Shown: one piece after another, positions 5,599 through 50,300 of the stretch
Layout: the number at the start of each line of letters is the position of its first letter
How positions within the stretch are numbered: position 1 is the stretch's first letter
NCBI GenBank assembly: GCA_964352425.1
Contig: CAYGRZ010000004.1
Coordinates: 2,647 to 66,646, forward strand
DNA: 64,000 nt
Direction of reading: 5' to 3'
From: an uncultured Planctomycetia bacterium
GTDB taxonomy: Bacteria > Omnitrophota > Gorgyraeia > 2-01-FULL-45-10
The notes under the pieces: model-generated
Told to the model about the DNA's origin: nothing
The model's database searches: none
Seen by the model: the letters and a program-made list of their open reading frames with translations, nothing else
Position numbers and translations under genes: made by a program

Positions 5599-5611
5599 CC
5601 GCCCCGCCCCC

Positions 5612-19105: not shown

Positions 19106-19127
19106 GGCAAGGCTTCCTCTACATAAA

Positions 19128-19162: not shown

Positions 19163-19176
19163 TGCGATACCGGTGC

Positions 19177-30100: not shown

Positions 30101-33100
30101 TCTCATGCCTGAGCGCTTGAACTATTTTACCCACGCCATCGGGTAAAGACAAGAGATATAATAGGTCCTCCTCGTCCAGATAGGCGACGCGCCTGCCGAT
30201 GCCGGGATGGAATACCATGTCCGTCGCAACCTCACGTTTTTCAAGTTCTTTCGTAAGCCCTTTCACGATAACAACGCCGATGTTGATCGCCGGCAGTTCG
30301 GCCATGAGTTTGCTCAAGTTCCTTTCCTGAATCTCGCTGAGCTGCTGCGTAGGCGCGGAGAAGGGGATATCTATCTCACCCGGCCCGGAAAGGTCGGGCT
30401 GTTTCGCCAGGTAAAGGGTATAGACACTGTCTCTTGCGCGGAACCGCGCGCCGAGGGCCGCGTTCGCGCTTCTTTCATCTTCGTTTATTGTGCCGGCCGT
30501 AAGGCCCCGCGTGCCATGCTCGGCTTCCGTCAGGGCGCCGCCGGCCCCGCGTATCGCGCCGACGGCGCCGGAGGCGATAAGTTCGCTCTGCGGCGCCCAA
30601 CTGCCGAAATACTTTTCCAGCATCGAATAGTCGCCCCGGCTCGCAGCATCTAAATCCATAAGATTCTTTCTCCTGCGCTCATCGGTACGCTTATAGTTTA
30701 TCCTCTTTTGGGCCTGCGAGAACGTGAATCCGCCCAGGCCGGGGTTGGGAAGGCTGAAGAATCCCCCCGGCACATTCTTGACCTTGCTCCACACCAATTC
30801 GGGATCGAGCAAGATATCTGAATGTTCATCGCGGAGGGCATTATACACCACTTCCGCTATGTTATCTTTCGCCGTATCGCTGAGCGCGGACAGATGGAGC
30901 GGGAGCGCTTTGACACCGTCTTTCCTGACTTCATTGGGTATCCCCGCACCATTCGCCAAATACCATCCGAGCGTATCATTGATATTGGGATAGACATCCA
31001 ACAATACTGCCCACCTGCCCATATCGCTCAGATAGTCATTGATCATCGCCTTTATCCCTTTGTCAAATTTAAAAGGCAGGAAGATGGAGCTTCTTGAGAT
31101 CATGACATTGTACCCTCCGCCCGGGGTACCGATGCGGACCGTATTGACATTTTCATCACTGCGCACATTGATGCTCGTCGTGCTCACTTCAGGGAAGAAG
31201 TTGGATATCCTTATATACCCCCGCTTATAGGCGCCCCTGCTGAATGTCACCCTGTCCCAGCGGAAAGCGGCATCCAACACATGCGTCCTGGGCGGCACTC
31301 TCCATACCTTTCCCTTCGGGACGTAGATGGCAACGTTGGACATCACGATCCGGTCAGAGTCTTCCGGTATCTCTATGCTTCCGCCCCCTATTACGCGAAC
31401 GTTGTCTATAAGGTATACCGCATTCCTATTCTTCACTATCAGGTTCTTGCCGACCTCGAGGTTCGTATTGATGAGGTTCTGGTTGGATTCTTTCGGGATC
31501 TGCATACTCATCCGGCCTTCCGGATTAAAAGCGATATACTCGAATAATTGATGGACGGGCGTCAGGTGGCCCGTATCCTGCCAGATATGGCCTTCGCCGA
31601 AATCGAAGCAATACAGCCTCGTCCTGTCTTCTTTCTCAATGTCAAACAAGTTGTCAAACACCTTCTTCAGCTCACGCCAGTCATCCAGATCGATCTTCCC
31701 CTTTTCGCCGGCGATCTCAACGGTAGGCACCATCCCTTCCCACGTCTTCATATCACAGAACCTCGACTGGTAGGCCACGGTCATGTAGCTTACAGGAAGG
31801 GCATCCAGGCCGCAGTAATCTAAGTTGTACCTGGCAAGGGTCTTGCTATTTCTCCTAGAAAATTCCTTCGTTACCTTGACCGCGAATTCTTTGTGAAGGA
31901 TCTCGCCGAATGGGTTCTTATAAAGAGAACCCTTGTCTTCATTCAAATGCGCGATCTGGATGATCTTGAGGTCATCCTTGCACTTCTCCCAGAAACCGCT
32001 CATTTCATAGGCCCTGCGATGGCCCTTCGGATATGCGGTGTATATGCCGAGCTCCTGCAGGTTCTCCGCCTTGATGCGTTGCCTGATCTTCGCCAGCCCC
32101 TCGGAGTTAAGTACGTCCGAAAGCTTTTTCCTCAATGCCTCGTTTGCCATAATTGTATTCCACGCTTCTTTGAGATCACTCTTTCCTGAGATCTCCTGAA
32201 CCGCCTGATCCAGCATCTGCAGCTCTGTCGCTGTATCGATGAGCTGAACACGGGAACCTGAAGTGAGGACGGCGAACTTACCCGCTATCGCCGGATCCTG
32301 CAGAAGTTCCGGAAGATTTGACTTGCCGAGCCACGTGTAATTATCCGACGCGGACCATATCAGCACTTGATCCCGCAATTCTTTGGGCATCATCTTGAGC
32401 ATGGTGAGGTCGACTATGAGGTTAAGCATCCTGGCATCGAGCCCCCTGACAAAGGTCCAGAGGCCTGAATGGAGTCTCCCCAGGGTCTCATTCCCTGCGC
32501 GTGTCTTAAGACCGCCGTCCGTGATGACAACAACGATCTCATTGAGCATCTGCTTATAGAATGCCGCCCACTCATCGTCCGTCAATGAGGGAACCTTCTT
32601 CATCAGGAAATCCTCATACCTGGCGATACCCATCTTCTCCAAGGCGGCTTTATTAAGTTCAAAATACATGCGCAACATATTATTTGTGAACGCGGGGAAG
32701 TCGTGCTTGCGTTCTTCACTGTCCTCAACGGCGAGAACCGGCCGTATTCTGCCTTTCGATATTCTCAGAAGTTCGGCATCTGCCCTGGCATAGAGGTCGG
32801 GGGATTCTTCGTTCATCTGCTTAATATTGGTAAGCGAGTAGGCTTCTACCGTCCCCTCGTAGATCTGGTTCAATGTCGCGTAGACTTCCGCTATGAACTG
32901 ACCAATGTTCTCCACCTTGATCTGCGGGCTGTCCTTGACCGCGTCCCAACCAAGCCGTTTCTGGCCTGCCCTATCGGGTTCCGCTAGATCAGGCATACTG
33001 ACGCCACCCGCTGCTATGTCCCATTTGCCGTTGTTCTTATACGCGACAACTGATGGATTTCCTCTATTACGCATCATGAAGCCGTTCACCCTCTCCCACT

Positions 33101-35117
33101 CGGCCCAGTCAACTTGTGCTCCGCCAGAGAAATATTCGTCCGCCGGCTGCACTATCCCGATCTCCGGCGCCTGAGCAGCTAACGCGTACGTTTCGTTGAA
33201 AGCCCGCTTGAACGGGCTCGAGGACATGATAGCGTCGATGCGAGTCTTGCGCACCTCCGGCTCCACGTTGAGCGTGGCAGCCAGATTTTCGCACGCGACC
33301 TTGTACGCGTTAGACATGAAGTCCCTGTCGTGCGGGATATGTTGCTCGCTGGCATACTTGATCTTCTTCTGCAGCCATAGTTTCACCTGCAGGTAGACAG
33401 CTTCCTCTATAAACCTGTCCATCCTCCCTTTGAGGTAGGGCCCATAAACCTGTTCGAAGCCTTCGGGGTCCGCTTGCTCGAACGCGACGCCGTATGTCGC
33501 CGGCAGCGGCGCGAGCATCCCCTGCTTCGTATCCTGCGGGGCGCCGACGAGGATCTCCTCGAACGGCGTGCGCTGGTTGGTCAGTATCTGGATATAGTTG
33601 GTCGGGACGTCCTTGGTGATCGACGGGCAGACGACGATATATGAGACATCCTGTTTTTCCAGGAGCTTCGCGATGCCTTCCGAGTGGAACCCTCCGGTGA
33701 CGAGCACCGCTATTTTCTGGCCGGCCTTCTCCATACCGTTCAACGTATTTTCGACGAGCGCCTTGTCGCGCTTGATCGCGATATAGTAGAACTCTTCCAG
33801 CTTCGAAACGGCATCCGCGACGGTATCGCTCGGCTCATCGAGTTCGTAGGCCAGGCCGTACTGGATGATCTTGTCCTTTATAAAGGAGCCGAATGCCTCA
33901 TGGGTAAACTCCTCCTTGTGGGTCTTGTAATATTCGAAATCGTCATTGAGGAGCTTTATGCTGACGAGGCCCAGCAGGGTATCTATGTGGCGGGAAAGCT
34001 TCTCGAGGGTGCGCTGGTCGTCATTCTGGAAGAGCTTCTCCTTGATGGCCGTCTCCAGTTTTTTGATCTCCTTGAAGAGCTCTTCGTTCTCTATCTTTGA
34101 ATAGACGCTGTTGTAGATGATATAGTTGTAGAGGTTCGGGTAATCCTTCATCAGGTCGATACCGTTCCTGGTGGCGAGGTTCCTTACGTATACGTAGTAT
34201 TCGGCGGACGACACCTTGCCGACCTTGAACGCGATAGACTGGTTGACGAGTTCCGTGAGGACATCCTTGGTTATACGTTTCGACAGGTCATCGATGAGGG
34301 CGCTGCGCTCCTTGTCGGTCACGTCAAAATCGATCTTCTTCTCGTAGACAAGGACATTGATGAGCTTGAAGAGGTTATCGTACTCGCGCAGGTTTATCCT
34401 GTACTTCTCGGCCTCTGCCTGCAGAAAGCGGATATAGTCGTTGAACGGCAGCTTCTTGGATTCATATTCCGCGGCTTTCGCGTCCATCGCCCTGAGGTCT
34501 TCATTATAGATATAGCCTTTGAGCGTATTGAGGAGCGACTTGATCTGGTTAAAATATTTTTCGGTCTGTTCTTTGAGAGGATAGCTGGAGGTGAACGCGT
34601 TCAGGTTCTCGATGTAATATTCGCGCGTTTCGGCGCCGAAAAGCTTGATTGGAAGGTCAGTGGTGATCGAAAGGAATTCGGGGCCGGTGATCTCGCCCTT
34701 CTTCATGAAGTAGCTGGCGACCTCCTTGCGGACCTCGGCATCGGGGAATGACTTGAACCACGACGTGTCGATGAGCCCGTCCGCACCCTCAACCGATACA
34801 AAGCTCAAATTGTCGTTCTTTATCAGCGTTTCGATGATCTTCGCGATATTTGACTGTGCCTCGAAATTGCAATGGGCGTCCTGGATATGGACTATGAGCA
34901 TGCCGCTCTTTCCGGTGAACTTGGACTTGACGAGGCCGCAATCCCTCGGAATGATGATCTTTTCCGGATCGGTAACACCCTCTTTGGAGGCAGCCGTCTC
35001 GCTCTCAGTCCCTGCCGGGACCGCGAACGCTATGCTCGAAAGGACAAATGACTGCACGATCACGACGCTGATAATCTTCAATAATACTTTACGCGTGCGC
35101 ATTGATTCGATCACCAT
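27147..35117 (-). CDS. Giant secreted multidomain protein (2656 aa) with an embedded alpha-D-phosphohexomutase (phosphoglucomutase/phosphomannomutase) domain and two HExxH-type motifs. The rest is of unknown function.
   Basis: Uninterrupted 7971-nt ORF with an AGGGG SD 5 nt upstream and N-terminal signal peptide MRTRKVLLKIISVVIVQSFVLSSIAFA. The PGM hallmarks appear in the correct order: the phosphoserine loop SGSHGPKEKNGFKIKV (cf. TASHNPKEDNGFK), the metal loop FDGDADRISAIDETG, and the sugar loop TAEASGHNFF (cf. GEESGH). Confidence 0.8.
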   Translation of the reverse strand: MVIESMRTRKVLLKIISVVIVQSFVLSSIAFAVPAGTESETAASKEGVTDPEKIIIPRDCGLVKSKFTGKSGMLIVHIQDAHCNFEAQSNIAKIIETLIKNDNLSFVSVEGADGLIDTSWFKSFPDAEVRKEVASYFMKKGEITGPEFLSITTDLPIKLFGAETREYYIENLNAFTSSYPLKEQTEKYFNQIKSLLNTLKGYIYNEDLRAMDAKAAEYESKKLPFNDYIRFLQAEAEKYRINLREYDNLFKLINVLVYEKKIDFDVTDKERSALIDDLSKRITKDVLTELVNQSIAFKVGKVSSAEYYVYVRNLATRNGIDLMKDYPNLYNYIIYNSVYSKIENEELFKEIKKLETAIKEKLFQNDDQRTLEKLSRHIDTLLGLVSIKLLNDDFEYYKTHKEEFTHEAFGSFIKDKIIQYGLAYELDEPSDTVADAVSKLEEFYYIAIKRDKALVENTLNGMEKAGQKIAVLVTGGFHSEGIAKLLEKQDVSYIVVCPSITKDVPTNYIQILTNQRTPFEEILVGAPQDTKQGMLAPLPATYGVAFEQADPEGFEQVYGPYLKGRMDRFIEEAVYLQVKLWLQKKIKYASEQHIPHDRDFMSNAYKVACENLAATLNVEPEVRKTRIDAIMSSSPFKRAFNETYALAAQAPEIGIVQPADEYFSGGAQVDWAEWERVNGFMMRNRGNPSVVAYKNNGKWDIAAGGVSMPDLAEPDRAGQKRLGWDAVKDSPQIKVENIGQFIAEVYATLNQIYEGTVEAYSLTNIKQMNEESPDLYARADAELLRISKGRIRPVLAVEDSEERKHDFPAFTNNMLRMYFELNKAALEKMGIARYEDFLMKKVPSLTDDEWAAFYKQMLNEIVVVITDGGLKTRAGNETLGRLHSGLWTFVRGLDARMLNLIVDLTMLKMMPKELRDQVLIWSASDNYTWLGKSNLPELLQDPAIAGKFAVLTSGSRVQLIDTATELQMLDQAVQEISGKSDLKEAWNTIMANEALRKKLSDVLNSEGLAKIRQRIKAENLQELGIYTAYPKGHRRAYEMSGFWEKCKDDLKIIQIAHLNEDKGSLYKNPFGEILHKEFAVKVTKEFSRRNSKTLARYNLDYCGLDALPVSYMTVAYQSRFCDMKTWEGMVPTVEIAGEKGKIDLDDWRELKKVFDNLFDIEKEDRTRLYCFDFGEGHIWQDTGHLTPVHQLFEYIAFNPEGRMSMQIPKESNQNLINTNLEVGKNLIVKNRNAVYLIDNVRVIGGGSIEIPEDSDRIVMSNVAIYVPKGKVWRVPPRTHVLDAAFRWDRVTFSRGAYKRGYIRISNFFPEVSTTSINVRSDENVNTVRIGTPGGGYNVMISRSSIFLPFKFDKGIKAMINDYLSDMGRWAVLLDVYPNINDTLGWYLANGAGIPNEVRKDGVKALPLHLSALSDTAKDNIAEVVYNALRDEHSDILLDPELVWSKVKNVPGGFFSLPNPGLGGFTFSQAQKRINYKRTDERRRKNLMDLDAASRGDYSMLEKYFGSWAPQSELIASGAVGAIRGAGGALTEAEHGTRGLTAGTINEDERSANAALGARFRARDSVYTLYLAKQPDLSGPGEIDIPFSAPTQQLSEIQERNLSKLMAELPAINIGVVIVKGLTKELEKREVATDMVFHPGIGRRVAYLDEEDLLYLLSLPDGVGKIVQALRHEKAHIENRKLSEAQIEAKWSTYDVRKALLMRDGMSELEANFKLAIDGLPQAYKTIVAMPKQDLIKYFESNLSETTAKLPEDIFGFGNGYDVRGNAQPIKVMGKTIEANLTPANMYLVGKLLGTYHAKPGDKALLTGDIRLHTPISRYCMALGISSVGVNVEYAPDLLTTGAHNLMATENSGGYKFMVQVSGSHGPKEKNGFKIKVDLGNKVLEPLYAEKLADLYKQRSVVRTDVPAGSVTQTGGIEQYVVNMLNETLPATLKDEIVVIDPRAGAAGPIITALLEKRGFKIIDMDKTKEPDLIAAIKKEWDGGARRIAVMLNMAPDGNMGRGIWDPSLPEALEPTQRLVKLINANPVSPITPRAFGAVFDGDADRISAIDETGRAIPAFEMTLPYYQRFLINPSNQEVMMRLVQTGAEPIRIVCDVRANSKLLNLINTINAQLQAGAGITDRNIIEGYFITTGYPPQLGFMQNRIAELEKFVAGKPELRNDAAFMKNFDNLKRTYFTAEASGHNFFHISKAYPSRVCDCAISGFVTLMNIRETISRYEAPALKLQPGKERYELAELFDKFPPAYSSREVTADIPNAIKIATAKKIGAWMKERFKNDLKAYSDAKKENDYTIQPKDDGFVTVSGFKIQLKDGRTALVRWSNTSEKLTTIFEGRTPADLVSITEEVTERLRQEGAVNVAPLDKEIARLKGLEAQTPEEVKPETAEPAYDEEAGQTPQPSVPALPAPGELSGIGIGASTEPPARTPAEAGRLAALRKEADDDAAALRNTIGPMWFDKSIADNTKIILLYDTAIDPAAQQVVQKVGVVINKYLGGSVTEFRGKGTNLLDQDTEDQINEIIKDAEKSGKKLAIVAATGNDTFSAIETRLKPIIKRVNDAMKAKSDEKRKNVLDGPMSAIIKVEKPMSPTALYNILLNIGFNRDPDKILMALNRAGRNSNGEMFTKDDLVKMLLEGLASITPANLNDAHAKYEAELAALRSM
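28098..29780 (-). other. Phosphoglucomutase/phosphomannomutase-like four-domain module (residues ~1780-2340) inside the 2656-aa protein.
   Basis: The Ser loop at residues 1861-1866 is encoded around nt 29520-29537 and the metal loop FDGDADR at nt 28983-29003. Confidence 0.7.
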
Positions 35118-35356: not shown

Positions 35357-38300
35357 TTATGCCGAGCTACGGATCAAGGCTATGCCGTCCCAGTATGCCC
35401 TGAGCTCCGTTCCGTAGTTGAGCGGCAGTATCGGCGGCATGAAGTTATATATATCGCCATTCTTGGTGACGCCCGGAGGCAGCTGGCCTTCCGCGACTGC
35501 ACCCGTTACCATCAGGAAGAGCGCCTCGTACGAATTGATCGCCGGCACGACCTTCACGCCGTTCATCTCGATCTCTTCGGCGACGAGCACCTTTTCTCCG
35601 GCGGACGTGGGCTTTCCAAGTTCTGAGGCCTCTGCAGTGATACCGATATTGCCCATACTCTTCTCGTCCAGGCCTGCGGCATCTACTACATCCGCCCTGA
35701 TGTCGGCGTATGACCGGTCCTTCTTATTGATGAGTTTGATATCATTGACATTGCCCGTGTAACCGGATGCCGCGATAAAGGAGCGCGCTGCTTCCTCTGT
35801 CTTATATATATCTCCATAGATGAAGCAATTGACGACCTCTCCTCCGGCCTGTTTGCCTAGCGCTTCGGCCCTGTTCATGCCCTTGCCGAAGCGTATGTTG
35901 GACATGGCCATCTTCTCTGTCGTCGCCATGGCGAATTTCTTAACCGCGCTCCGGGCCATCAAGCTCTTGAGGGAGGAGGCGTCCGGAAGCTCCATAGGCC
36001 TGTATGCCTTCGTCTTCGTAGCGAGCTCGTCCCTCCGCTTCTCGACGATCGACGTTACTGTGTCGTGTAACCGCTGCCGCAGGGCAGGGTCCTTGGCTGC
36101 TGCCATGCTCGCTGCATCCAGGAGATTGTCCCAGTCCATCTTTTCTGTTCCCGGCAGCATGGCCTTGATCGCCTCGGCGATCTCCTGCCTCGTCGCATCA
36201 TCGATACCGGCCATCGCGAATATCACGTCATAGGCGCGGGCCAGCCTGATCGAGGCGATGTCCTGCTTGAATTCCGCGGATGTTATCTGGCTTACGGGCA
36301 TCGTACCGTCAAGGAGTATGCGGGCGGGGCTTCCTTCTGAAGCCATCTTCCTGAGCTCTTCCTCGCCCGTAACACTGACGACCCTGGTCCCGGTGCCGTA
36401 CGCGCGCCCAACCGCCTCCACCGTTTCGGCGGACGCGCCAGCCAGGCCGATGATGAATGCCGCAGCGCTGACTTTCGCCGGCTTCGGGAGCGGGAGGCCT
36501 TCGGCGGGTTCTTTCATCTCAACTGTCTCTTCCAACCGGTGTATGAGATCGCCGACATATCCTTCGCCCGATGGCTCCCGCGCAGATTCCATCATAAGCG
36601 CCGTTTTGACCGCCTGGTCGGTGATGTACCTTTCATTCACCGTCACGGGCGCAGGGCGCATCCTGTCAAGCTGTTTCCATATGACGTATGCCGCGGCGGC
36701 CGCGGCACCGATCGCAAGCACCATCCACGGCGGGAGCGCCAGATAGACGAATATCCCGAGAAGAATGAACGAACCGGCTTCCACGAGCCTCGGCGTGGTC
36801 GTCGTGGTGGTGGACTGGCCCATCCTCGCGGTGAACTCGGCAATAAATTCCGGCTCATTCTCTATCCTCTCGACGACGACCTGCGTCTTATTTCTGACGA
36901 TCTTATTGATCTCATCGTCCGTTTTCGCCTGCCAGTTTTCGAGCAGGTCGCCGCAGGCAGCGGCAGAGCACTGCCCCGCAACCGTCTTCAGCTCGGGTAT
37001 CATGCCGTATATGACGCCCGGTATCATGAATATATTATATTTTTTCTGCAGGTACAGGCTGAACATGAGCGTTTTATGATACCGCGCCGCGTCGCCGCAG
37101 ATCGTGACCGGCAACCCCCGCTGCGCTGCCTCTTTCACAACGCCTTCGATGATCCCGAGTATCTGTTTGTCATAATCATGGGCGGTGATCCCGCTCCTGT
37201 CCTTCTCCTTGACGCTCGCCGTCATGTCGTTCGAGCCGATACTCAGGAACCGTATCGGCACGAGCCCGTTATCGAGGATCAGCATGAGATTCTCGAACGT
37301 CAGGTTGCCGGCCTTGTCCATAACGAGGTCCCGGTGCTCGACCATGATGCCGATGGGCATCTCGTCCAGCAGCCTGACCACCTCCGCTTTCTCTTTGCGG
37401 GCACTTCTGAACATCTTGTGGTGCTGCGCGGCGAGTTCGTCCATGAACTGCTCGGTCTTTATCTCTTTCAGGAGGTCGCTGATGAAGACGATATCATCCA
37501 TCGTCTTCACCATCGGGAACATCATCCTCAGGTTGTGATAGTCGGATAACATCTGGGCCCGCAGGATCGCGGTTATCTGCGTCTTCAGCGCCTCGCGGCC
37601 TGTCTTCGTCCTGTAGTAATCGAAGCTGTACGGCTTGCCATTCACGCCGGCCAGGCGCTCCGTATCGGGCAGGGCGGGGCATGCTTTATCATCCTGCTTG
37701 TCGAACGTCCTTATCGTGACGGTCTTGTTGGCGAGATTCGCCAGGCCCATATACAGCCGCTCCTGATGAGCAGCGTCAGGCGCCTGGCTTCTGCCGTACA
37801 TAAATTCCGTCCTCGCCAGCGCATTGCCGTTCGCCCCGCTGCTATATGCCGTTCTCAGCGCGCCGAGAGCCCCTTCATCCTCGATGCCGAATTCACCCTT
37901 CTCGAGGTTGTAACCGACGTTGATGTTGGCATAGACCGGGGTTTCGACGCCGTCGAGGGTCCTGACCACCTCATCCGGTTCTTTACTCTGTTTGGAGAGG
38001 TAGTAATCTTTGAGCGCCTTCGCCCTTGCTACCTTGACCGCCATCGCGGCGCCCTGATCGCTCGTCGCGGGTCCGGCATAGAAGTAGGCCTCGAAACCGG
38101 CCTCCGACACGTAGAAAGAGCAGGACGCGTTCGTGTGGGCGAGCTTTGCCAGGACGATCTTCGGCGGGCCCAGCAGCAGCGTCGCGCCCCGCGCCGTAGC
38201 GACGAGGGCGGCATGCTGCGAGGTCGAGCCGCCGGACGAGACGAATGCCTTGACTTTGTATTTCTCCGTGAGCGCGCGCAGGATAAGCTCGTCTTCGATG

Positions 38301-41300
38301 AGGCCCGCGGACACGACGACGATCTCCCTCTTCTCCTGCCTCGCCCTTTCCGCCACTTCGTCGATATCCTCGAGCCTGACCTCTTCGATATCGAGCTTGA
38401 GGCATATATTCTTCACGATCTCCTCGGCAAGCCGGCCCTCGTCGCTCCGCTTGCCTTGCGCATCCACAGGATAATTTGCTTCGAGCCATTGCCACAGGGC
38501 GAAATGCGCGGTATGGCGGGCCGTCTTTATCGTTTCGCTGACACCGCGGAACATGCGCTCGGCGACCTGGGCGGCGGTTGTAGAGGGCGACATCTCCGCC
38601 ATAGCCGCCGTGTGGCAGGCAAAATACTTGCCCTGTTCCGCCTCGACCCCGTCCTCGCTTATCACGTATCCTTCGTCAACGGCTTTTATGACGCGGATGA
38701 TCCTGCTCTTCGTGTCAGGCCTGGCGAACACAGGCACCTTCAGGAGCATTTCACAGGCTTTCCTTACCTGGGCCGCTGCGCTGTCACTGCCGTTCTCGAC
38801 CCTGACATTCTCCAGGATGTGGTCATACAGGGCGATCATCGCCTTGAACACTTCCGCCATCTCTCCCGTCGCCGTCTTGAGATCTTTCTCAACCCGGTAG
38901 ACCTGCGGACGTATCCTGCTTATCAGGTGCGTCATCTCGTCGGCGGGTGATGTCCTGATGTGTTTGACCCGGTCGCCGACCTTGTACCCCGACTTCAGGC
39001 CATCGAGCGTGAGGCTGTCTTCAACATAGTTCAATATGATGCCGTTCCATACGCCGCCGGGCACACCGTTCGTCGCGCACTTATGTATGCCGCGCAGTTT
39101 TTCGTAACAGAGCCCGTACGCCTTATCGGACAGGGCCTTGGCGCCTTCAAGATTAACGGCGTTGGCCCTGCCAAGCAGCTCGGCCGCCGTCTCGGCGGAA
39201 AGCTCTTCCGCTACCGCAGGCGATTTCTGGAGCTGGAGCAATTCGATATACACGCCGTCGTAGATAAGGTCGAGCGTCCTGGCCCTTTCTATCCCGCGGT
39301 CGCCGACCATTGTTACAAATTCCTTATCGGCGCCGATCCTGTTCGGCGTGGCGATCAGGACCTGCGTCACCGGCACGTCGTGGGACGTGACCCTCTTCAG
39401 GTCATTCAGCGCAACGTGGGTAGCCGTCTGGCCGGCTTCTTTCGTCTTGCGTGCCAGCAGATACAGCTGCCACAGCTCGAATATCTCGTTATACAACTTG
39501 CTCTTGTTCTTGGGATCGACGACGTGGTTTTCCGTGAACATCTCGGTCAGGCATTTCTGCACAAAATCGACAGGCATGGGCTCTAAGCCGCGCAGCTCAT
39601 CGGGCAGCGTCTCTTTGAATACTTCATAGACATCGCGCTCTTCCCTTGCCCTGTCAAGCATCGCCTTCTCAATGCCTTCGCGGCCTGTCGCTTCGCCGAC
39701 AACGTCTTCGCCGACGGCCCTTGAGATGTAAGGAGCTGTCGCGCCTTCGGGAGGAGCCCCGACGGCGCCTTCCTGTCCGGCGGTGACCATGCCGAGCATC
39801 ATGCCTGCCGCCGCTATATTCATGGAGCTGATCTCGTGCCCAAAGGCTATGGAGGCAAGCGTACCGATGCCGGCAAGGAGCATCATCTTCGTCGTAGCAC
39901 TGAGGCTCTTGGACCTCTTTGTGAACCTTTCCACCACGCGGCTAACCCTGTCTTTAAGAGGCGCCGCTGCTGTAACGGCCTCTGCCGGAATAAACGACTG
40001 TTCGTTGATATCCACACCGACATCGAGATCGTTATTAAGCTTTTCGAGCAGGAGGTTGACATTATTCTCGTACACATTGCAGGACGGGCATTTATGTATG
40101 TCGAAATCTTTTCTGGCGCGCGTCGTCCCTACCAATATGTCATGGAGCCGCTTGCCGCCCGTGCTCAGATCACCTATCTGGAAGATCCTGTCTTCGAATG
40201 TCGGCTGGGCAGTGAGACAGCACCTGTATACTTCGCCCCACGGGTTGATGACGATCTTGGTCAGGGTGGCCCAGCAATCCCTGGGCATCTTGACCGGCTT
40301 GGCCGATTTTACAAGGCCTCCGGCCAATACGTTGAAACGCTCGGCTATATCTATCCTCATATTCCCGAACTCCCCGAGCCTCTGCATCTTCCTTATCTTG
40401 AATATCATCTTGAGGAGCCCTTTCATCTCCTCCTCGCTGAAGTCTCCGATCTTTCCTATGATGTCGGCCCTTATATCGAAGAAGTCCGCTCCCATGAGGT
40501 GTGCGAGCTTGATGGCCATGTAAAGCTCTTTATAATTCTGGGACATCGCGAGGAAGCTCACGCCGATGCTGACGTCGCTCTTAGTCTTCCTCTTTATCTC
40601 CACCATACCTCTTATATTGCTCTTTATCCACTCGACATCCGAGCCGGGCCTGCGGTAGACCGCCTCATAGGTTTCCGGCGTGGCCGCGTTGAAGCTGACT
40701 CGGATCTGTTTTGCGTGAGTGACGACCTCCTGAGCCCTGGCGGTATCAAGGAACGTACCTTCGGTATATATGTAGACATTCAGCCCTTTCCCTGCGGCAT
40801 ACTGCACGACATCTACACTATCCTTATTTGTAAACGGCTCTCTGCCGCCGGAGAAATAGATGTCTCTCACGCCGTTTGCTGCAAAATCGTCTATCAGGGC
40901 GAAGAGCCTCTCCTTATCAATGGCGGGCTTGCCCTGCCTGTCGGCATAGTCCCGGCCCTGGCTATAGCAGAAGATGCAATTGCTCGGACACTTCAGGCCA
41001 AGATGCAGCTCCACGATCTTCGGATATACCGGCTCACCATTAAGGATCTTCCTGACGTAATCCTCATCCTCCATGAGCAGCCGCGCTATCTTGATAAAGG
41101 TGGCGTTCGGCGACTCCATGGCGAGCATCTCCTGCATGAACTGGCTCGACTTCACTATCTTATACAGCTCCTTCAGGTCGCCTATATCGAGCCCTGTCTT
41201 TTTCATCACCTCATGGGAGGAGCTATACGGATAGAGCAACAACTCCCGCAATAGCCGCAGGAGCGGGATCCTCAGCCTGTCTCTCACCTCTATCCCATCC

Positions 41301-44300
41301 GCCTTCAATGCCTCCATGGCAAGTTCAAGTGCCTTATTATCCTGCGTTATGTCGACACGGGCATCCTTCAGCCGGCGTGCGAGGTTGCCGACAGGCTCAT
41401 ATAGCGAATGTATGTAGTCTTCGAGGTAAGTGGATGACCTGCTGATGCCGTAATCCCGGGCATACTGCAGCACCTTGTGGAATTTGAAATCATCCAGGTC
41501 ATCGCTGTTTTTGAGAGCACTGAGTATATTGTCCTGTGTCTTTTGCGGGAATGCGAGGAACAGCTCTACTTCTTTGGAGGTGATATACATCTCTTCTTCC
41601 ATGGGAGAAAGAGGCGGCGCGTTCGTCGGCATGCTGCGGAGCCTGGCGTGCATGAGCTCATGGATAAATTCCATGAATAAGAGCTCGTTATTCGCCGCCA
41701 ATGAGTCGACATCGAGCGTTATACTATCAGCACCTTCCGTGAAATGCATGAGGCGGTCGTTCCCCTCGACGATCCGGATAGATTTTTCTTTCATGAGCGC
41801 CTTTCTCTTTATGGCTGCGGCATCTCCGCTTCCCATTTCCAGGAGCTCCTCTACCTTTTCCCTGGCGGATTCGCTTAAATCATGGAGCGTGATAACTCTC
41901 TGCAGCAATGCTTCCAGAGCCGCCTTCATGCCGTTATCTATACCTTTGTAATTCTCGACCTGTCCATCGATGATGGTGGCCCAGGCCAGGTCGTGCCTGC
42001 CGCCGAGGACACCTGCCTTCATCGCTATGGGCGACGGCGCGAGTGCAGCGGGGGCCGCCGGAGCCGCAGCCGGCGCAGGAAGATCTAACAATCGCTCTAA
42101 GCCTGTCGCGCCGCTCTTTGTTACGACCGCCTGCCTTTTCGCGATATCCAAGTCGGGCCAGTATTTTTCAAAAAACCGCCGCGGGCCGGCAGCTTCCAGG
42201 ACCTCCATTATTCTGTTGATACGCTCCAGTTTTACGGCATCGACCTGTCCGGCCAGAAGGCCGCCCTTCTGCCGTTTAACTATTTCATTCAGTACCCGCA
42301 CCCTGGCGAATTCATTCAGCTGATCCCATGCGCCCTTCCATTCCGTCTCGGTCCACGCCTTTATTTTCTTATGCTGCAGTTCTATTTCGGAGAGATCCAT
42401 CATCTTCATCGCATCAGCGACCTCGTTGCGCAGATCCTGCTTATCGGTACCGGCCAGGTCCAGTTCTGTGAGATAAAGTATATAGAGCCTTAACGCGTGC
42501 CTGTCCTTATTGTATATCGTCTCATTTTTTGTAAGCTCTTTTATCTTTTGTATGGCCGCGCCGTCCGACAGCGCCGCTTTCCCCATCACCGTACCCGTCT
42601 CTTTCATCCAGGCGTTCAGTTCGTGTATCATGAACTGGAAAGGCTGGGTCCTGTGCTCCCTGGTCCCGCCGTACTTCGCCGTATACCAGGCGGCATATGG
42701 CCCGAATACCCATGACAGGATAAATATCGGGAAGCCCTTGAAGACAAAAGCCGGGTCAAATATTCTGAAAAGGAAATAGTCGCTCGGGAAGAATACCCCC
42801 ACAAGGACAAGGACAAGCAGCGTGATCCCGGCTATCGGCGCCCATTTAAACTCTTTATACGCCTGCCAGACAGTCATTCCCTTTTCCAGTCTGGCCTCGA
42901 CTGCTGTAAGCGTATCCCACCTGAATTCTCTTCCTTGTATGACAGCCTTTGTAGATTTTTTAAGATCGAGAGGGCCGTATATCAGGTTCATCATCATGAT
43001 CGAGGTATGCAGGAAGGTCTCGACAGCTAGGCGCTTTGTCGTCAGATAGACCTTATTCACCATGCCAAAAAAGTCTTTGACAAATAAGGCCGGTCCTGAT
43101 GCGGCGCGTGCCATGGCGTGTTGTAACATACCCGCAAGCGTCGCGATCCCGACGTAGATTATAGTATATGCACAGATACCGAAGTTGTGCTTAAGCAGGT
43201 CTTCCGTAAGGTAAGCCGCTGACGGCACACTCCTTAAACATAGCTCGATATACGGCGTGGCGGCCCAGAACATGGCCACCAATCCGGCGGGCATACCGAT
43301 CTTAACCGGTATCTCCGTCCACTTCATGCCGACGCTAATAAGTTTCTTGACCGGATTCCGCAAGATCACGATGAGCAATACTACGACTGCCGCCCAGACC
43401 GCCAATGCCGGTGCCGCTATTATTATCTTCGGCAAGGCGACCAATAACGCCACGGACGCGAGACCGCCCGCTACGTTTGCCCAGGTCTTCAGGCTCCGGG
43501 GGCCTCTTTCGAACGTCTCTCGCAGTATAGGACTGCCTTTCTGGCCTATCAGTATGAGCATCACGATCGCGAAGAGGTCGCGTGCTGTGACCGGATGAGT
43601 TCCGGTAAGGACAGCGGGAATCTGTGTAGCAATCAATCCTAAGACGACGAGCCATATTGTAAAGACCGGAGTGGACAGCATCCCCCGTATTATGCCTGAA
43701 ATGTGGTGTTCCGATTCAAGGTTCACGTTTGCGCTTCCCAGTACCGATTCTCGTATCTGTTTTTTCGCGGCGATCATAGCCTCTATGCCATGGCCCTGAG
43801 CATACGCGAACATGGCTTTTGCCGCGTTCCATTCCCTGCGCAGCGCCTCGACATCGCCCGGCACCCACCGCCTCATCCTTATGATCATTGAGGAGAAACT
43901 GGTCACCGTCTCTTCGAGTATATATATCGGCGCTAAGAGCGTCCCTACAAGATATGCGGTCGCCGTCCACATCGCCTCCCAGAAATCATGGCTTCTGACC
44001 GTCCAGGGAAGGACCTGCTTCTTGATAACATCGTTCAGATACTTTGGACCGTAAAACGTCATCTTGCCGACTGCCGAGCCCTTGCCGAAGATCCAGAAAA
44101 AGACAAGGGAGATATAACTGAGCATGCTCTGCGCCCAGCTCTGCAGCCGTGCGAACAGGGACTTACCGATATTGGGGTATTGTATCTGCGGCTGGTACAT
44201 CCCCCAAAGCTCCTTGCCCAATATGTCATACGCGGCCCTGCTGCCTATCCGCTTGGCCACTCCCGAGATGACCTCATTCTTATTATCTATCTCTATCGGT

Positions 44301-47300
44301 AACTGTATATATATATCCGGTTCCACCTCATTACCCAGCATATCTTTGGCATACACGTATCCGGCGTCTCTCTTCACTAAAATATAGGTCCCGACCCGCG
44401 CTATCCTGTTCTTGCCGTTATCTATCGCCCACCCCTCTTCATCGATATCAAAACCGTCTTTTTGCTGTAAGGTCCTCTCGACAATGAGATCGCCCGTCTT
44501 CTCATCGACCGCGACCTCTCCGGCGCCGAATGTCCCGTTCATATTTATGACAGGATCGCCGGCGTCAACGGCTATCCTGCGTAAATTATTATCTTCATCT
44601 AAAACGAATTCGCCGCTGGCTGCCAGCTCCCCGTCCGTAGTCTTCAGATGAGCATTCCCGTAGCCGTCAAAATAGACATCGTCATATTGCGCGAGGAGCC
44701 TTCGCGTCCTGTAGATGCCGTTGTTGTCCTTGGCGAATGTTCCGTATCTGGCAAGCCGCTGCGATTGTTTCAGGGCCTCCGTCTTCTGGTCCAGTATAAT
44801 GTTATCCTGCACAACGCTCGTGATGCCATCCTTAGCGAGATCCCACCTTCTCAGGGGTTCCTTATCATACCGTGACACGCTGCCATCCATGGGATACTGT
44901 AGAAGTTCTCCGCCTTTTATTACAAACCCGTCTTTTTCATTTGCAAGATAGCCGTCCTCGACCTCTCTCAACCTCAATGCGCTCGTGTCTGCTATTAACA
45001 TTCCGCCTGCGTCCCTGGTGAGCGAATGAGCGCGATCGGCTATAAAGTAAGTGGTCTCCCTGCCGGTCTTGCCGAGCCCAAGCTCAAAGAAGTCGGTTAT
45101 GGCGCCCTCGCGCGCGTATAACTTTGCCTCTTGCTTGGTTATCCCTCCTGCGTACAGGTCGCCTTTCAGGTCTTTCTTCCATGTCCCGTATTTTGCGAGT
45201 ATACGGCCGCTTGCAGTATGTATGGCATCTCCTGTGGCCTTCTCTACGTGCCATGAGCCGGCCAGGGCTTTCAACCCCTCGTCCACGATCAGGTTGCCAT
45301 CCGCATCCGCAGACCACCACCCGACGGGAACGAGGACATCGCCCGTAATTGTAACGGCGTTGCCTGTTTCAGGATCACGCTTCCATTCGCCTTCTTTTGC
45401 CCTTGTCTTTACAAAGGCTCCGCCCCTCTCTGTAATGACGCCGTTGGCGTCCAGCGTATCTATGAATGTCTCCAAGTTCTCCGGAATGATCGGCCTCTGC
45501 CCGTCGAACTCGGCCGCGCGGGTCAGGAGATATTCGCCGCCATATTCGTTTACAGCGGGGGTAATCTTGCCGTCCGCGCCTAATATATATTTCTTATATG
45601 CTACACCTTGATCGATATGCCCTATCTCATCTATCGACGCGAAATATGCCCCTGTCGCGGCATCCAACAGCTTGCCGTCTTTCGTCAATATCAGCGTATG
45701 CCGTATCGCGCCGCTTTTATCCTTCAGATAGATATGCTGGTCATATATAGTGGCGACCCTGTCCGGCAGCTCCTGGCCGTCCTTTCCCTTGGCCCTCTGC
45801 GTACTGTCATTCCTGTCCCTGAGCAGGCCTGACTTGGGAAGCTCGTCATACATATCCTTTGTCGCGATAAGTTTTCCCGTCGCGTCATCATAGATGTCCC
45901 CCTTAAGGAGCCTGTAACGGCGGGCCGGATTATCCGCGTCAATATAGTATACCTCTGACTCGGCGCTGACCTGCCACTCACGGTCATCTATCTTGATCGT
46001 GCGCCTTTCTATAGCATACTCGCCCTTAAGTAGCTCCACCGCAAAGTCTGTTACCAGCTCAAACCCTTCATTCTCTTCATCATATACGGGACTGCGCGTG
46101 TATGTGCCGCGCGGGAACCTCTTCACTTCGGTAGTCTTGCTGGTGTCGCTGTATACGATCGCCTCTCCGGTCACGCCGTCTATGGTATATGTTCCCGGCT
46201 CTGCCAGGATACCCTGCCTGAGAGTGCCGGAGGCGTCTTCCGCTACTGTGATCTTAGGCCTGTCATCATCCAGTCTTGTGACATAGAGATGCGGGTGGGT
46301 CCAGCACTCCAACATCCACTCAAAATCCGACCTGTAAGAGCCGGGCTTCATCATATGCGTCGGATTATACACGTGTTTCTGGAAATTTCTGTGCGCATAG
46401 GTAACCTTGTCGCGGCCCCACAGCCTTCTCGCATTTAATATCTGGGCTATCTCTTCCATTATAAGCCCGGCTTCCTTCAGCGCCGTATCGCTGTGCATCC
46501 ATGCGCCGAGATTATCCTGCTCATCAGGAACAAATTTATTGCCGGCTGAATCCTCATAGAGATATTTCGCCTTGTCCGCGCCGACCCTCTCCATCTTCAC
46601 GCTGTTTATCATGGAATCAAACAATGTTTTCGCGATAAGTTTTACGTCAAGCGGCCCTTCCTGGCGGCCGATGTCATAGATGACGGCCTTATATTTTTTG
46701 GCTATCCTCTGCGTCTTTTCGACAAGTTTATATTTTGGCAGGTCCCACGGCGCTCTTTCCTTAAATAGGCCTACCATGTTGCCTAGGAATAATGCGCCAT
46801 TTGCCACTGTAAGGGTACCGATGGCGACAAATAGCTCTGCCATGCAGTAATTGCAATAGGTATACAGGACCGCTGCCACGGCTATAATGCCGAGCAGGGA
46901 CGTGTCCGCGTTTATGGTGCTTAATGCGTAAATAGCCGTAACTGAGGTGGCGGCCGTGGTTATCGCCAGTTTCGCCAGGCGCGCGAAGAAGGTGTGGGTC
47001 AGCTCTCTCTGATTGCCTCTTCCTGTAATGGCTGTGGCCGCCAATTTCAAGGTATCCCGTCCGAAATCGACCGCGGCGGATATAGTGATATATACCAGGA
47101 TGCCGGACGCAAGCGCCATTAATGTATAATTTAATCCCGGGATCCCCGATATATAAATACACGAGAAGACCGCCAGGGGGACCGCCCACTTTATGACAGG
47201 CCGTATAGGAGGCTTTGTCGCTTTATCGATAAAATAATTCCACCACACCAATACTGGCGCGAGCAGTATGAAGAGCCAGCTTGAATATGTACCCAGCACC

Positions 47301-50300
47301 GTAAAGTGGGTTATGTCATTAAAGTGGTAGAGCGTAAGCCCGGTAAGCACCAATTTTGAGATAAATACCATAGCGCGGAAAAGCCCCATCAACGCTTCGA
47401 TCGTTACGGCTCCTGCCTGGCCGGAGGTGTCTTTCGGGGCCGCGGCAGGCTTCGCGCCGGCTACCGGCGGCGTGGGCGCCGCGGGAGCTGTACCAGGCGC
47501 CGGTACGTTGGCGTTGGGTCCGTATAATATCTTCTTATTTTTACGGATCTCTCTGCGGTGGCGGTAGAGGGCTATCTTGTAGAATCCCATAATGCTAAGG
47601 ATAGAGATAAGCATATAGGTAAGGCCGGCTATAAGCTTGTGCTTCGGTTCCGGCGCTATTTTCCCCAATTCCATTTCAATGATGCTCCGGATGACTTTCT
47701 GCAGCCGCGCATCCTGATCTGCGGAAAAAGCGCGAACAGCGCGGGGCCGAATTATCGCCGTGTCGCCCTTTCCTTCTTTGACATAGTCTATCTTTACAAG
47801 GCCCCGGCTTATGATCCTGTCTTTGATCCGCGCTGTCATCTTCTCTCTGTCCCTACGCGACATCCCTTCGATCTTCTCCTGAGCTTCAAGAGATAGCTTT
47901 ACGTCAGACAGCGGGTCTTTGCCTTTGAATACGTTATCGTCCAGATAATTCTTTAACGTCTCATGCAGTGACAGGAGGCGATCATTCTGAAAATCGTTCC
48001 AGGTGACATCCATGGGCGCCTTGACATCCTGTATCAATAATTTCTCCCGAGGAGAACCGGTTTTTATGCCCAGGGCCTTGAGCTCCATGATGCCTATGAC
48101 CTTATCCTTATCAAACCCGTCTTTATCGAGCACGGCCAATATCTCAAGATCCCCCCTTTCGATACGTATCTTTTCGAGCCTTCCGAGCATCGTCGGGTCC
48201 TTGATACTCTGGCTGATCGCGGCATTGGCTTCCTTCACCTCTATGAGCCTGTTAACAAGCTTCACGAAATTTGCGGGGTGTATATTCCTTGCTTTAAGTT
48301 TCTGCGAGATCTCTCGTATGATGCTATCGCGGTCCTTTTCGAATTTCCCGAGCTCGATCCTGCCATCCTCGAACTGGGAAGCCACGATCTTCTGTATCTT
48401 GTCCGCCTCTATGTCAACTATCTCTGCTTCCGGCGGTTCGATGATATTTGTGTTGAGAGAAAGGCCGATGATATAGAAAAGATCTTCCCGGGTCTTTTTA
48501 TCCAGCGTGTACTTTTCGCTCGCCAGCTTATCCGTCATCTCCTTAACCATTTTTATGGTCCTGCTCACGGGCAGGTCCATGCCCTGAAGATCTTCCACCG
48601 TAAGCGTATCGGCCCTCCTGCCGAAAACCTCGTAGTAGTCGGTTCCCGGCGCTTTCATCGGCACCGGCATGATGCCGTTATATATCATGTGGCTGACGAG
48701 TATTTCCAGGGCGTCCTCATTAAGCGTTACGCCCAGTTTTTCCATCTCCCCTTTCAGGTATATGCCGTAGAGCAATTGCACCCTGATATAGTCGATCGGC
48801 CATCCGTCCATATCTATTTGCGTGACGTAATACTTTAACTTTTTCTCCATGGGAGGCGTCAGTTTGCTCTTACTGTAAATATTCTTTAACAGCTCCCGCA
48901 CCTCGAGCGGATGGACAAACGTCTTGGTCAGGTAGTCGCTGGCTGTCATGCCGCTTAAATATATCTGCCTCTGGATATCCCATATACTGTTTTCATCCGC
49001 GGGATCTATCCTCTTCTCAGGCGGCAGTTGCTCGTTAATGCCGGGCAGCACCGCTTCAATATCTTCCCTTATGGCAGCCAGATCCTGATCCTTGAGCGCC
49101 TTGTCGGCTGTCCGCGTCTTGTAAGCGGAAATTTTTCCCTGCCGCTCATCCTTAACCGGTTCGCGGAGATCGATCCACTTATCGATCTGCTGTTTGTTGG
49201 CTATGGTCCATTCTTTATTTCTTTCGCTCAGTTTAAGGTTGATGTTCCTGATGATATCCGGGAATATCATCGAGTCCAGGGACTTGACATCACCGGCTAT
49301 CTTTTCCCCGGGTACATCCTGTGTCTTCAGCAGCATATAGGTTATCTGCTTATGAAAACTGCCCAATTTTTCAATGGCCTCGGCCCTGGCTTTTCTCATA
49401 TAGCCGGGCCTGGTCTCCGTGATGGCCTTCAGTTGCTCCATATGCTCATTGTAACGCTGGATATCTATATCGCTGAACTGATCCTGGTCGTTAAAGAGGT
49501 CATTCCTCTCCTCTTCGATCGACGGGCCGAGGTTCGTGTAATATTGTCTCTGGGACTGGAACTCTATATTGATCCTCCTCTGCATCTTATCTCTCTGGGT
49601 CATCACGCCGGTCTCGCTTTGAGCCATCTCCCGTATAGTGTTTCTCAGCATCTTCTGCCCGAGATAATAACCAAGCGGTGAATTATTGGCCCATTCCTGG
49701 ATAAGCGAGGCATCATAGAAGTCGCGCCGGATCCTTGCCGTTTCCCGCTCCTCGCCTTTTCCTGCCTCATCCAGCTCCATGAACGTGCCGGTTATCTGGC
49801 CGTAACTTAAACGGGGAACGCCGTTGGGGTCTGTCTGGTTCTTGACCATCGCCTCTTCTTCTCTCTTTATGAGGGCTTCAAACCGTATATATTTTGCTAT
49901 CTTATTCCTGATGAACCAGTCCCCGGTCTCCTTGCGCTCCGGCTGGCTCAGGTTCTTGAACCGCGGTTGTGAAAGATATTTCTCCTTTGCATCCTGCAGA
50001 TAATTCCCGAACCTGATGGCCGCCTGCAGGAATCCCAGCTCGCCTATCTCTATCTCCTGGCCGCTCGCCCTGGATATCGCTTTGAGATAAACGGCATTCA
50101 CCAGCTCTCCCTTCGCCTCCGCCATCTTTTCCTTCATCAGATCAGCCGGCTCCTTCCCCTGCTTGGCGGCAAGAGCCTGCATCTTCTTATACATTATCTG
50201 CGCTCCGGAGGTCGCCAGAGTATCCTTGACTTTTTCCCGGTACGTGTCCAGGCTATAGAACAACCGTGCGTTATACACCGCCTTGACAAGGCCTTCCCAT

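Follow-up and report, generated by a model that had tools for sequence, protein, structure and literature searches.

We analyzed a window of 64,000 nucleotides (positions 2,647 to 66,646 of contig CAYGRZ010000004.1, assembly GCA_964352425.1) from an uncultured bacterium of the Omnitrophota, in which one uninterrupted 28.5-kb open reading frame (ORF) encodes a giant protein of ~1.05 MDa, and we conclude that the radical S-adenosylmethionine (SAM) domain embedded in this giant is probably a cytoplasmic sugar-tailoring module of the DesII lineage, carried by a membrane-anchored multi-enzyme protein. A preliminary description of the window had pointed to a CxxxCxxC core with a SAM-binding glycine motif, placed in a membrane protein of >1 MDa between a third transmembrane cluster and a PtsI-like module, and had proposed that the domain modifies the giant itself or a co-exported peptide. 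The core motifs (C7641/C7645/C7648 and GGREP, with PF04055 above threshold), the size of the host protein, and the position of the domain, between the hydrophobic cluster at aa 6749-7041 and the PtsI-like module at aa 8526-8952, were all borne out. The proposed peptide substrate was not supported, and we consider it likely that the substrate is a carbohydrate. Both this substrate class and the membrane sidedness and chemistry discussed below are what we infer from the observed motifs, fold, family, fusion partners, and gene contexts. Positions of all features are given in Table 1, and residue numbers refer to the giant unless stated otherwise.

The module was delimited by an exhaustive HMMER search, in which aa 7300-7975 of the giant were compared with 1.84 billion cluster representatives. 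This returned 7,586 matches at E<=1e-3, 924 at E<=1e-10, and 83 at E<=1e-30, the last two counts giving the size of the subfamily at those thresholds. The query split in two: its residues 214-676 (aa 7513-7975) and 1-201 (aa 7300-7500, containing the HELMH motif) matched different sets of proteins, and the best match to the former, the radical SAM module, had 45% identity (E 1e-132). The interval 40061-41662 (aa 7417-7950) given in the preliminary description thus held all of the motifs but merged two modules and omitted the last 25 residues of the radical SAM module. The Pfam Radical_SAM profile (PF04055) scored 42.0 bits (E 1.4e-10), above its gathering score of 29.5, the GGREP motif lies in the context FSGGREPF (aa 7686-7693), and the C-terminal subdomain contains the Cys pattern C7879-x12-G-x4-C7897(C7898), then C7941-PS-C7944, together with a conserved tail, LEKLxxDxxxGxxxxxQ(P/S)F. 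In an alignment of 28 copies of the radical SAM domain (hereafter A1), the three Cys residues of CX3CX2C, the G-G-x-E-P residues (G176, G177, E179, and P180 of the module), and a C-terminal Asp and Gly were invariant (28/28), and at least 90% conservation was seen for module residues C367, C385, C429, and C432 (aa 7879, 7897, 7941, and 7944) and for a QP near the end. Of the adjacent Cys residues C7897 and C7898, only the former is conserved across the family. When full three-domain copies were considered, CX3CX2C was present in 59/59 and the complete four-Cys pattern in 51/59. The giant has only 33 Cys residues in its 9,517 aa, of which 8 fall inside the 463-aa module (P for 8 or more in 463 aa, 5e-5), and CX3CX2C occurs once in the 9,517 aa against 4e-4 copies expected at the Cys frequency of the giant. 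A chance origin of the Cys motifs was rejected on these statistics and on the Pfam match above threshold; the SAM-binding and auxiliary-cluster elements were also present on profile alignment, in agreement with the preliminary description.

The affiliation of the module with DesII, the TDP-4-amino-4,6-dideoxy-D-glucose deaminase (TDP, thymidine diphosphate) of Streptomyces venezuelae (PDB 8HZV/8HZY), was evident from both sequence and predicted fold. The DesII fold starts with a six-helix N-terminal domain, continues with a radical SAM domain, and closes with a C-terminal beta-hairpin and two helices, and it contains a single [4Fe-4S] cluster (PMC11434129). Assignment with radical SAM hidden Markov models (HMMs), as the preliminary description had suggested, placed the window copy and each of the 28 aligned relatives closest to TIGR04426 (DesII) among the NCBIfam families; the window copy scored 79.4 bits, far under the equivalog cut-off of 450, and the best E value among A1 members was 8.3e-30, none of them being near the cut-off. 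In a phmmer search, the single domain matched PDB DesII with an E value of 2e-13, and the match took in the region upstream of the cluster motif. The family profile matched DesII (8HZV) with an E value of 8.8e-39 over DesII residues 50-476 of 493, compared with 1e-13 or worse, and over the core only, for other solved radical SAM enzymes. An AlphaFold2 model built on A1 (mean predicted local distance difference test score, pLDDT, 91.3; predicted template modeling score, pTM, 0.90) has helices only in residues 13-111 (no beta-strands were assigned by DSSP in residues 1-111), an alternating strand/helix core at 120-343, and a hairpin (373-376 and 381-383) followed by helices. When this model was compared with the PDB by Foldseek, six DesII chains ranked on top (E 5e-22 to 1e-20; template modeling (TM) score 0.74-0.79), followed by a second tier with SuiB, SkfB, and CteB at TM 0.44-0.51, and the top matches were all radical SAM structures. 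The GGREP motif aligns with the GGE motif of DesII (G187, G188, L189, and E190). We are therefore highly confident that the module is a DesII-like radical SAM domain with a twitch-type C-terminal subdomain.

The same results raise the question of whether the module could be a true DesII orthologue, i.e. a TDP-4-amino-4,6-dideoxyglucose deaminase serving a desosamine-like deoxysugar, since DesII is the best match by HMM, PDB sequence search, and fold, and since genes for a DegT/DesI-type aminotransferase and a 4,6-dehydratase-like protein are found near one distant stand-alone relative. We regard this as very unlikely. The identity of the module to DesII is ~19-20%, and the TIGR04426 score is 79 bits against the required 450. 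Further, the profile alignment pairs the module's four conserved C-terminal Cys residues, which are foreign to DesII, with DesII T388, Y406, V448, and M455, and neither acid-base residue of DesII is conserved: E408 falls on L7899, and D456 falls in a variable column, on N7945. Substitution of D456 by alanine inactivates DesII (PMC11434129). Finally, no aminotransferase or nucleoside diphosphate (NDP)-hexose 4,6-dehydratase was detected in the window.

The C-terminal Cys residues were next compared with the definitions of the twitch and SPASM domains, both of which open with a C-x9-15-G-x4-C hairpin (PMC9012708, PMC10470005). Twitch domains carry a single auxiliary cluster, which in BtrN has four Cys ligands and is the proposed electron acceptor (PMC9012708). 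In the module, C7879-x12-G-x4-C7897 flanks the model strands 373-376 and 381-383, directly after the barrel, and this hairpin geometry fits a twitch domain. The second-cluster motif of SPASM domains, CX2CX5CX3C with a distal Cys (which brings the SPASM total to 7-8 Cys), is absent, and the next Cys after C7944 is C8120, which lies outside the module. Because the C-x12-G-x4-C hairpin and the CxxC are not accompanied by further Cys residues, we assign a one-cluster twitch, and a full two-cluster SPASM domain was rejected, given that the family conserves four C-terminal Cys residues and has no second-cluster motif. The Pfam SPASM profile (PF13186) scored 21.1 bits, marginally under its gathering score of 21.5, as is expected for a shortened SPASM domain. 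The auxiliary-cluster pattern of the preliminary description is hence present as C7879...C7897...C7941-x2-C7944, but it is that of a twitch rather than a SPASM domain, and the second Cys of the adjacent pair, C7898, does not belong to it. The four Cys residues should, as predicted from this pattern, bind one auxiliary [4Fe-4S] cluster, and by the profile alignment their site sits exactly where DesII has its acid-base residues E408/D456. The subfamily links DesII, which has no auxiliary cluster, with twitch enzymes, which have one, and this suggests that the C-terminal domain of DesII derives from a twitch domain by loss of the cluster.

The twitch assignment bears on the proposal that the module is a peptide or protein maturase, introducing thioether, C-C, or epimer modifications into the giant, the 2,656-aa protein encoded downstream, or a co-exported peptide. 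Maturases of peptides that are ribosomally synthesized and then modified after translation (RiPPs) dominate the SPASM/twitch class, and SkfB, itself a twitch enzyme, is a sactisynthase (PMC10470005). SuiB, CteB, and SkfB are also the next-best structural matches after DesII, the helical N-domain of the module has no assigned function, and a substrate fused in cis would be present at a very high local concentration. We nevertheless find a maturase quite improbable for the following reasons. First, the RiPP maturases match at TM 0.44-0.51 and E ~1e-13, as against TM 0.77-0.79 and E 9e-39 for full-length DesII. Second, the N-domain is devoid of beta-strands and so does not form a winged-helix RiPP recognition element (RRE); an RRE-containing RiPP maturase was rejected because this helical domain aligns with the N-domain of DesII and because of the fold ranking. 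Third, the giant and its 2,656-aa neighbor offer no Cys-rich region as a thioether or sactionine target, which the preliminary description had proposed to look for: outside the domain, the giant has at most 3 Cys per 60 aa, and the neighbor, with 12 Cys in all, has at most 2. Fourth, no candidate precursor ORF, and no small ORF with a Cys, was found in the gap at 35118-35356, the region adjoining the gene that we inspected. Fifth, the closest relative of the module, P0002, has nothing in common with the giant but the radical SAM module, so that no target region is co-conserved, and, as described below, the family is found in association with sugar enzymes. Auto-maturation or a co-exported peptide substrate is thus disfavored by the DesII fold, by the lack of both an RRE and a second cluster, and by the nature of these partners.

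The relatives of the module were then considered with respect to length, fusion partners, and gene context. Among the 150 best cluster representatives, 125 carry the domain, in proteins of <=520 aa (71), 521-1000 aa (18), 1001-3000 aa (25), or >3000 aa (11). The closest copies in reference genomes are in metagenome-assembled genomes (MAGs) of Candidatus Omnitrophota (identities of 45%, 35%, 30%, and 29%), and another is in a Clostridia MAG. Very long frames (>=4,499, >=7,116, >=7,102, and 2,769 aa) hold 4 of the 5 closest genomic copies; the fifth is in a frame of at least 1,786 aa that ends at the contig end, and 2 of the five frames span both ends of their 21-kb loci. These genomic relatives were recovered with a 5-sequence alignment, the 28-sequence alignment being too diverse for the design of contig-scan patterns. 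A genome-contig profile scan with the single domain gave no relative, a word-indexed homology search gave one weak match for the single domain and four generic radical SAM matches for the family alignment, and a metagenome scan with the family gave short contigs only.

The contexts of ~15 relatives were inspected. An NAD-dependent epimerase/dehydratase of the GDP-mannose (GDP, guanosine diphosphate) 4,6-dehydratase/RmlD type is present in the same polypeptide as the radical SAM domain in three independent ORFs (L011, L012, and L013), and other partners in the same polypeptide are a GFO/IDH/MocA oxidoreductase, a PIG-L de-N-acetylase, a HAD hydrolase, and a methyltransferase. (We note that the ORF of L013, from Omnitrophota MAG JAQTOI010000013.1, also has an RNHCP domain (PF12647, E 3e-26) at residues ~4625-4711 of the scanned piece.) The stand-alone relative P0013 is encoded in a glycosyltransferase/flippase cluster with GT8, GT4, Polysacc_synt, and PMT_2 genes. 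Another, P0033, has within one to two genes a GDP-mannose-dehydratase-like epimerase, a DegT/DnrJ/EryC1 aminotransferase fused to TauD, a HAD hydrolase, and a short-chain dehydrogenase/reductase (SDR), a set that resembles a deoxy-aminosugar pathway, the type of pathway to which DesII itself belongs. In total, carbohydrate enzymes were found as fusion partners in at least 6 independent long proteins and alongside the domain in two informative operons. This recurrence also weighs on the alternative that the module acts on a non-carbohydrate small molecule (a nucleotide, as do viperin and MoaA, a cofactor, or a lipid) and that its sugar context is coincidental, which we regard as unlikely. The core of the module does show similarity, at 1e-10 to 1e-20, to viperin, MoaA, a tungsten-cofactor maturase, and NirJ/Ahb, some relatives adjoin methyltransferase and radical SAM genes with no sugar genes, and the phosphoenolpyruvate (PEP)-utilizing module of the giant has no assigned role. 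However, the similarity to enzymes of the viperin/MoaA type is limited to the shared barrel, and the N- and C-domains are matched by DesII alone.

We compared the giant with P0002 (6,442 aa), the closest relative of its radical SAM module, which is probably the product of locus L009 in Omnitrophota MAG JAZDPX010000009.1. The two proteins are 43.6% identical over 491 aa (aa 7507-7996 of the giant), and nothing in the remaining ~9,000 aa of the giant aligns with P0002 at E<0.1. A giant-protein scaffold shared with this closest radical SAM relative was consequently rejected, as the module alone aligns. On this sequence comparison, the radical SAM module appears to be a strongly conserved, exchangeable cargo unit. 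That the module is conserved while nothing else aligns indicates purifying selection on it, and this is difficult to reconcile with a decayed or purely structural remnant, i.e. a pseudo-enzyme in a fast-evolving giant. Such a remnant could be imagined because homologues are undetectable for most of the giant and because giants shuffle modules freely, but the three cluster Cys residues, GGxEP, the four twitch Cys residues, and the C-terminal signature are all intact, and the module is the sole part conserved with P0002; we consider a remnant extremely improbable.

Based on these comparisons, we propose that the module would be a catalytic cargo on the cytoplasmic face of an Omnitrophota-type giant. 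The cytoplasmic face is the most likely location because SAM, reductant, ATP (for the SecA-like part of the giant), and PEP (for its Enzyme-I-like part) are available there. The SAM cluster would cleave SAM reductively to yield the 5'-deoxyadenosyl radical, which would remove a hydrogen atom at a carbinol carbon of its sugar or aminosugar substrate, the latter being probably nucleotide- or phosphate-activated and glucose-derived. The Cys4 auxiliary cluster could then receive an electron from the resulting alpha-hydroxyalkyl radical, giving a keto-sugar by a two-electron oxidation such as that carried out by BtrN and by DesII on TDP-quinovose. DesII dehydrogenates TDP-quinovose. Alternatively, the radical might expel a neighboring leaving group by beta-elimination. 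By analogy, the oxidation of an alcohol to a keto-sugar is possible, but we put it forward only tentatively and hold it to be less than probable.

Several observations weigh against a cytoplasmic, sugar-tailoring, DesII-like module. First, SkfB shows that a twitch domain alone does not rule out peptide substrates. Second, the non-conservation of DesII D456 (N7945 in the module) means that DesII chemistry is not simply transferable, and BtrN is recovered neither among the profile matches (E<=1e-3) nor among the top 50 Foldseek matches, so that the oxidation chemistry rests on the Cys4 twitch analogy only. Third, the relatives with informative contexts are only 25-31% identical, and their function may have drifted; several other stand-alone contexts are short or uninformative, some having a methyltransferase and further radical SAM genes. 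Fourth, the searches of this giant detected neither an NDP-sugar-forming domain nor an NDP-sugar epimerase/dehydratase. Fifth, the topology is based on a crude Kyte-Doolittle hydropathy scan, with 1.6 applied for clear transmembrane helices, which cannot settle it.

Table 1. Features of the giant ORF and of its neighbors in the 64,000-nucleotide window.
Feature	Position	Strand	Residues and basis
Giant ORF, host of the radical SAM module	35357..63910	minus	9,517 aa; ORF list and translation
Divergent SecA-like ATPase region	61526..62812	minus	aa 367-795; PDB SecA chains, E ~1e-15
GH192-type beta-1,2-glucanase domain	58064..59323	minus	aa 1530-1949; phmmer vs PDB 8xuj_A, E 7.5e-52
HExxH module	41408..42076	minus	aa 7279-7501; HMM from its own carrier set; directly upstream of the radical SAM module
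HELMH motif	41648..41662	minus	aa 7417-7421; sole HExxH in the giant
DesII-like radical SAM module, three subdomains	39986..41374	minus	aa 7513-7975, 463 aa; exhaustive phmmer
N-terminal all-helical subdomain	41042..41374	minus	aa 7513-7623; DSSP of model, alignment to DesII 50-130
Radical SAM core, partial TIM barrel	40340..41026	minus	aa 7629-7857; PF04055, 42 bits
CX3CX2C motif, SAM-cluster ligands C7641, C7645, C7648	40967..40990	minus	aa 7641-7648; C-PSN-C-IF-C
GGREP, 'GGE' SAM methionine-binding motif	40835..40849	minus	aa 7688-7692
Twitch-type C-terminal subdomain	39986..40303	minus	aa 7870-7975; beta-hairpin and four conserved Cys
Weakly hydrophobic segment pair, possible membrane hairpin	39776..39898	minus	aa 8005-8045; Kyte-Doolittle 1.3-1.4, inference only
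PTS Enzyme-I-like PEP-utilizing module (PTS, phosphotransferase system)	37055..38335	minus	aa 8526-8952; PF02896, E 1.2e-21
C-terminal module of the giant	35360..36451	minus	aa 9154-9517; BLASTP, 30-36% identity to other C-termini
Downstream 2,656-aa protein, PGM/PMM domains I-II	27147..35117	minus	PF02878 and PF02879 above gathering scores
Three PF10091 (GH144-type) proteins	6633..8699, 16814..19330, 25089..26453	minus	
GH94 protein, 2,080 aa	8696..14938	minus	

Over the whole giant, the hydropathy scan gave at least 19 hydrophobic segments in four clusters (aa 1011-1365, 5426-5690, 6749-7041, and 9042-9060), and a K/R-rich stretch precedes the weakly hydrophobic pair located downstream of the radical SAM module. 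Pfam SecA matches in the ATPase region were under their gathering scores. The glucanase domain matches PDB 8XUJ, which is EeSGL1, a GH192 endo-beta-1,2-glucanase (PMC12102758); we note that this domain lies shortly after the first transmembrane cluster, was missed by Pfam, and falls in a region also present in the long protein P0056 (39% identity). The Enzyme-I-like module scored 82.8 bits with TIGR01417, under the cut-off of 341.7, and matched PDB 2bg5 with an E value of 1.6e-11. A weak match to OEP/TolC-like outer-membrane efflux proteins (window ~53486-54043, minus strand, aa 3290-3475; 20.9 bits vs 22 for Pfam) falls within a long coiled-coil-rich stretch. The C-terminal module (~360 aa) is shared, by BLASTP, with the extreme C-termini of P0056, P0017, P0024, P0037, and P0131, two of these five proteins having PPDK_N domains. 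This suggests a conserved C-terminal cassette that receives variable enzyme modules. The GC content is 0.50-0.54 over the radical SAM and HExxH modules (window 39700-42100) and much of the middle of the giant, and 0.57-0.62 in its C-terminal 1,500 aa and the downstream genes; the shift is gradual, and a fine-scale GC profile gave no sharp step at the module edges.

The HExxH motif that the preliminary description had noted near the radical SAM domain is indeed present, but in a module of its own. The idea that it forms part of the radical SAM enzyme was rejected because the two have different homologue sets and occur separately: 7 of the 8 other carriers of the HExxH module that we examined have no adjacent radical SAM domain, and in P0040 the order is reversed, with the radical SAM domain first and then an HExxH module from which the HExxH itself has been lost. 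The query region corresponding to aa 7300-7500 matched long proteins at 44-58% identity, and an HMM of the module found one occurrence in the giant. The module comprises ~220 aa, opens with a conserved SPIAM(R/K)AG-like stretch, is present in at least 9 long proteins, and corresponds to no Pfam family. The pattern F-x-E-F-[IVM]-H-E-L-[LM]-H was found in 8 of 9 module copies, and a Glu 13-18 residues downstream of HExxH is invariant (here E7439, 18 residues on; E170 of the HExxH-module alignment A2). P0017, P0024, P0037, and P0131, but not P0056, bear the HExxH module as well as the shared C-terminal module, and some carriers of both have PPDK_N and a methyltransferase in place of the radical SAM module. 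Judged from these sequence patterns, the HExxH module is an independently shuffled unit. Its predicted fold has weak minigluzincin-like similarity, and it could plausibly be a small zincin-like metallopeptidase; a role in processing the giant would be speculation.

The genes downstream of the giant place it in a carbohydrate setting. The 2,656-aa neighbor has its PGM/PMM domains at aa 1773-2053, a signal-anchor-like N-terminus, and no BLASTP match to the giant at E<=1e-3; it also has an HExxH of its own (…ALRHEKAHIENRK…). Further downstream on the same strand, together with the GH94 and PF10091 proteins, are genes for a sugar ATP-binding cassette (ABC) importer (a solute-binding protein and two permeases), a ROK protein, a two-component system (HAMP/His-kinase/response regulator), and an M48 peptidase. 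The window from 588 to 27031 (minus strand) looks like an operon for the utilization or synthesis of beta-1,2-glucan. With this setting in mind, we also considered that the module might be a cluster-bearing, possibly ancestral-like form of the DesII fold that works as a membrane-tethered oxidase or eliminase in a beta-1,2-glucan megaenzyme and acts directly on the glucan or oligosaccharide bound and cleaved by its own polypeptide and not on a free NDP-sugar, which we think unlikely. If it were so, there would be a physical coupling of radical tailoring with the hydrolysis of glucan, with PEP-driven phosphotransfer, and with export, and proteolysis by the minigluzincin-like HExxH module might serve to release the enzyme or to regulate it.

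The radical SAM superfamily, twitch domains, DesII, and the presence of PF04055 in Omnitrophota giants were already known. Counted at the Pfam level, radical SAM (PF04055) is present in 90 Omnitrophota long proteins, and in Omnitrophota proteins of at least 10 thousand amino acids (kAA) it co-occurs with starch synthase, GT1, PGM/PMM, and ROK, a content that was read as cytoplasmic-face (bioRxiv 10.64898/2026.06.07.730766). An earlier study of giant genes described a multi-transmembrane framework with a divergent SecA DEAD-like ATPase that lacks the scaffold and wing domains, and it makes no mention of radical SAM (bioRxiv 10.1101/2023.11.21.568195). What is new here is, first, that a large DesII-like subfamily, as yet uncurated, includes the embedded domains; second, that this subfamily keeps a four-Cys auxiliary-cluster site at the position of the DesII active site; and third, that the module is exchangeable and recurrently fused to nucleotide-sugar tailoring domains, the copy described here being in a beta-1,2-glucan-centered megaprotein. 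The repeated fusion to nucleotide-sugar and aminosugar tailoring domains points to as yet uncharacterized radical chemistry on sugars, both in Omnitrophota and in other uncultured bacteria. Giant bacterial proteins are for the most part without annotation, and an excisable 463-aa module (pLDDT 91) provides a concrete experimental handle on them.

Compared with characterized enzymes, the module is closest to DesII, with which it has in common the three-domain architecture, the CX3CX2C and GGE motifs in equivalent places, and, in part, the ribose and beta6 SAM-contact motifs (R, S, and D are kept, and both Tyr residues are replaced). It differs from DesII in having four conserved Cys residues where DesII has none, so that a second Fe-S cluster is expected, and in residing inside a 9,517-aa membrane protein, whereas DesII is a soluble enzyme encoded in a macrolide-sugar operon. 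BlsE, the cytosylglucuronate decarboxylase (PDB 7VOB), is likewise a radical SAM enzyme that acts on a nucleoside-linked sugar (profile E 7e-12; fold TMt 0.65), but it aligns over the core only and has no DesII-type N-domain, and the module scored 27 bits with TIGR04466 against a cut-off of 400. BtrN, the 2-deoxy-scyllo-inosamine dehydrogenase and archetypal twitch enzyme, has the carbohydrate-like class of substrate that we propose here and one four-Cys cluster site, C-x(n)-C ... C-x2-C, on a post-barrel beta-hairpin; as it has no DesII-type helical N-domain, this likeness suggests a possible working mode and not family membership. The RiPP maturases SuiB, CteB, SkfB, and PqqE also combine a radical SAM core with a C-terminal Cys extension opening with C-x9-15-G-x4-C, but the module is without an RRE-type N-domain and the second-cluster motif CX2CX5CX3C, and no precursor peptide was found in the gap adjoining the gene. 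With regard to the host protein, no subfamily, auxiliary cluster, or mechanism was given for the radical SAM domains of Omnitrophota giants (bioRxiv 10.64898/2026.06.07.730766), and the giant described here, at 9.5 kAA, is just under the 10-kAA cut-off of that study. It nevertheless resembles those giants in being a multi-transmembrane protein with a divergent SecA-like ATPase and in having radical SAM beside sugar-metabolism domains (PGM/PMM, ROK, and glycoside hydrolases).

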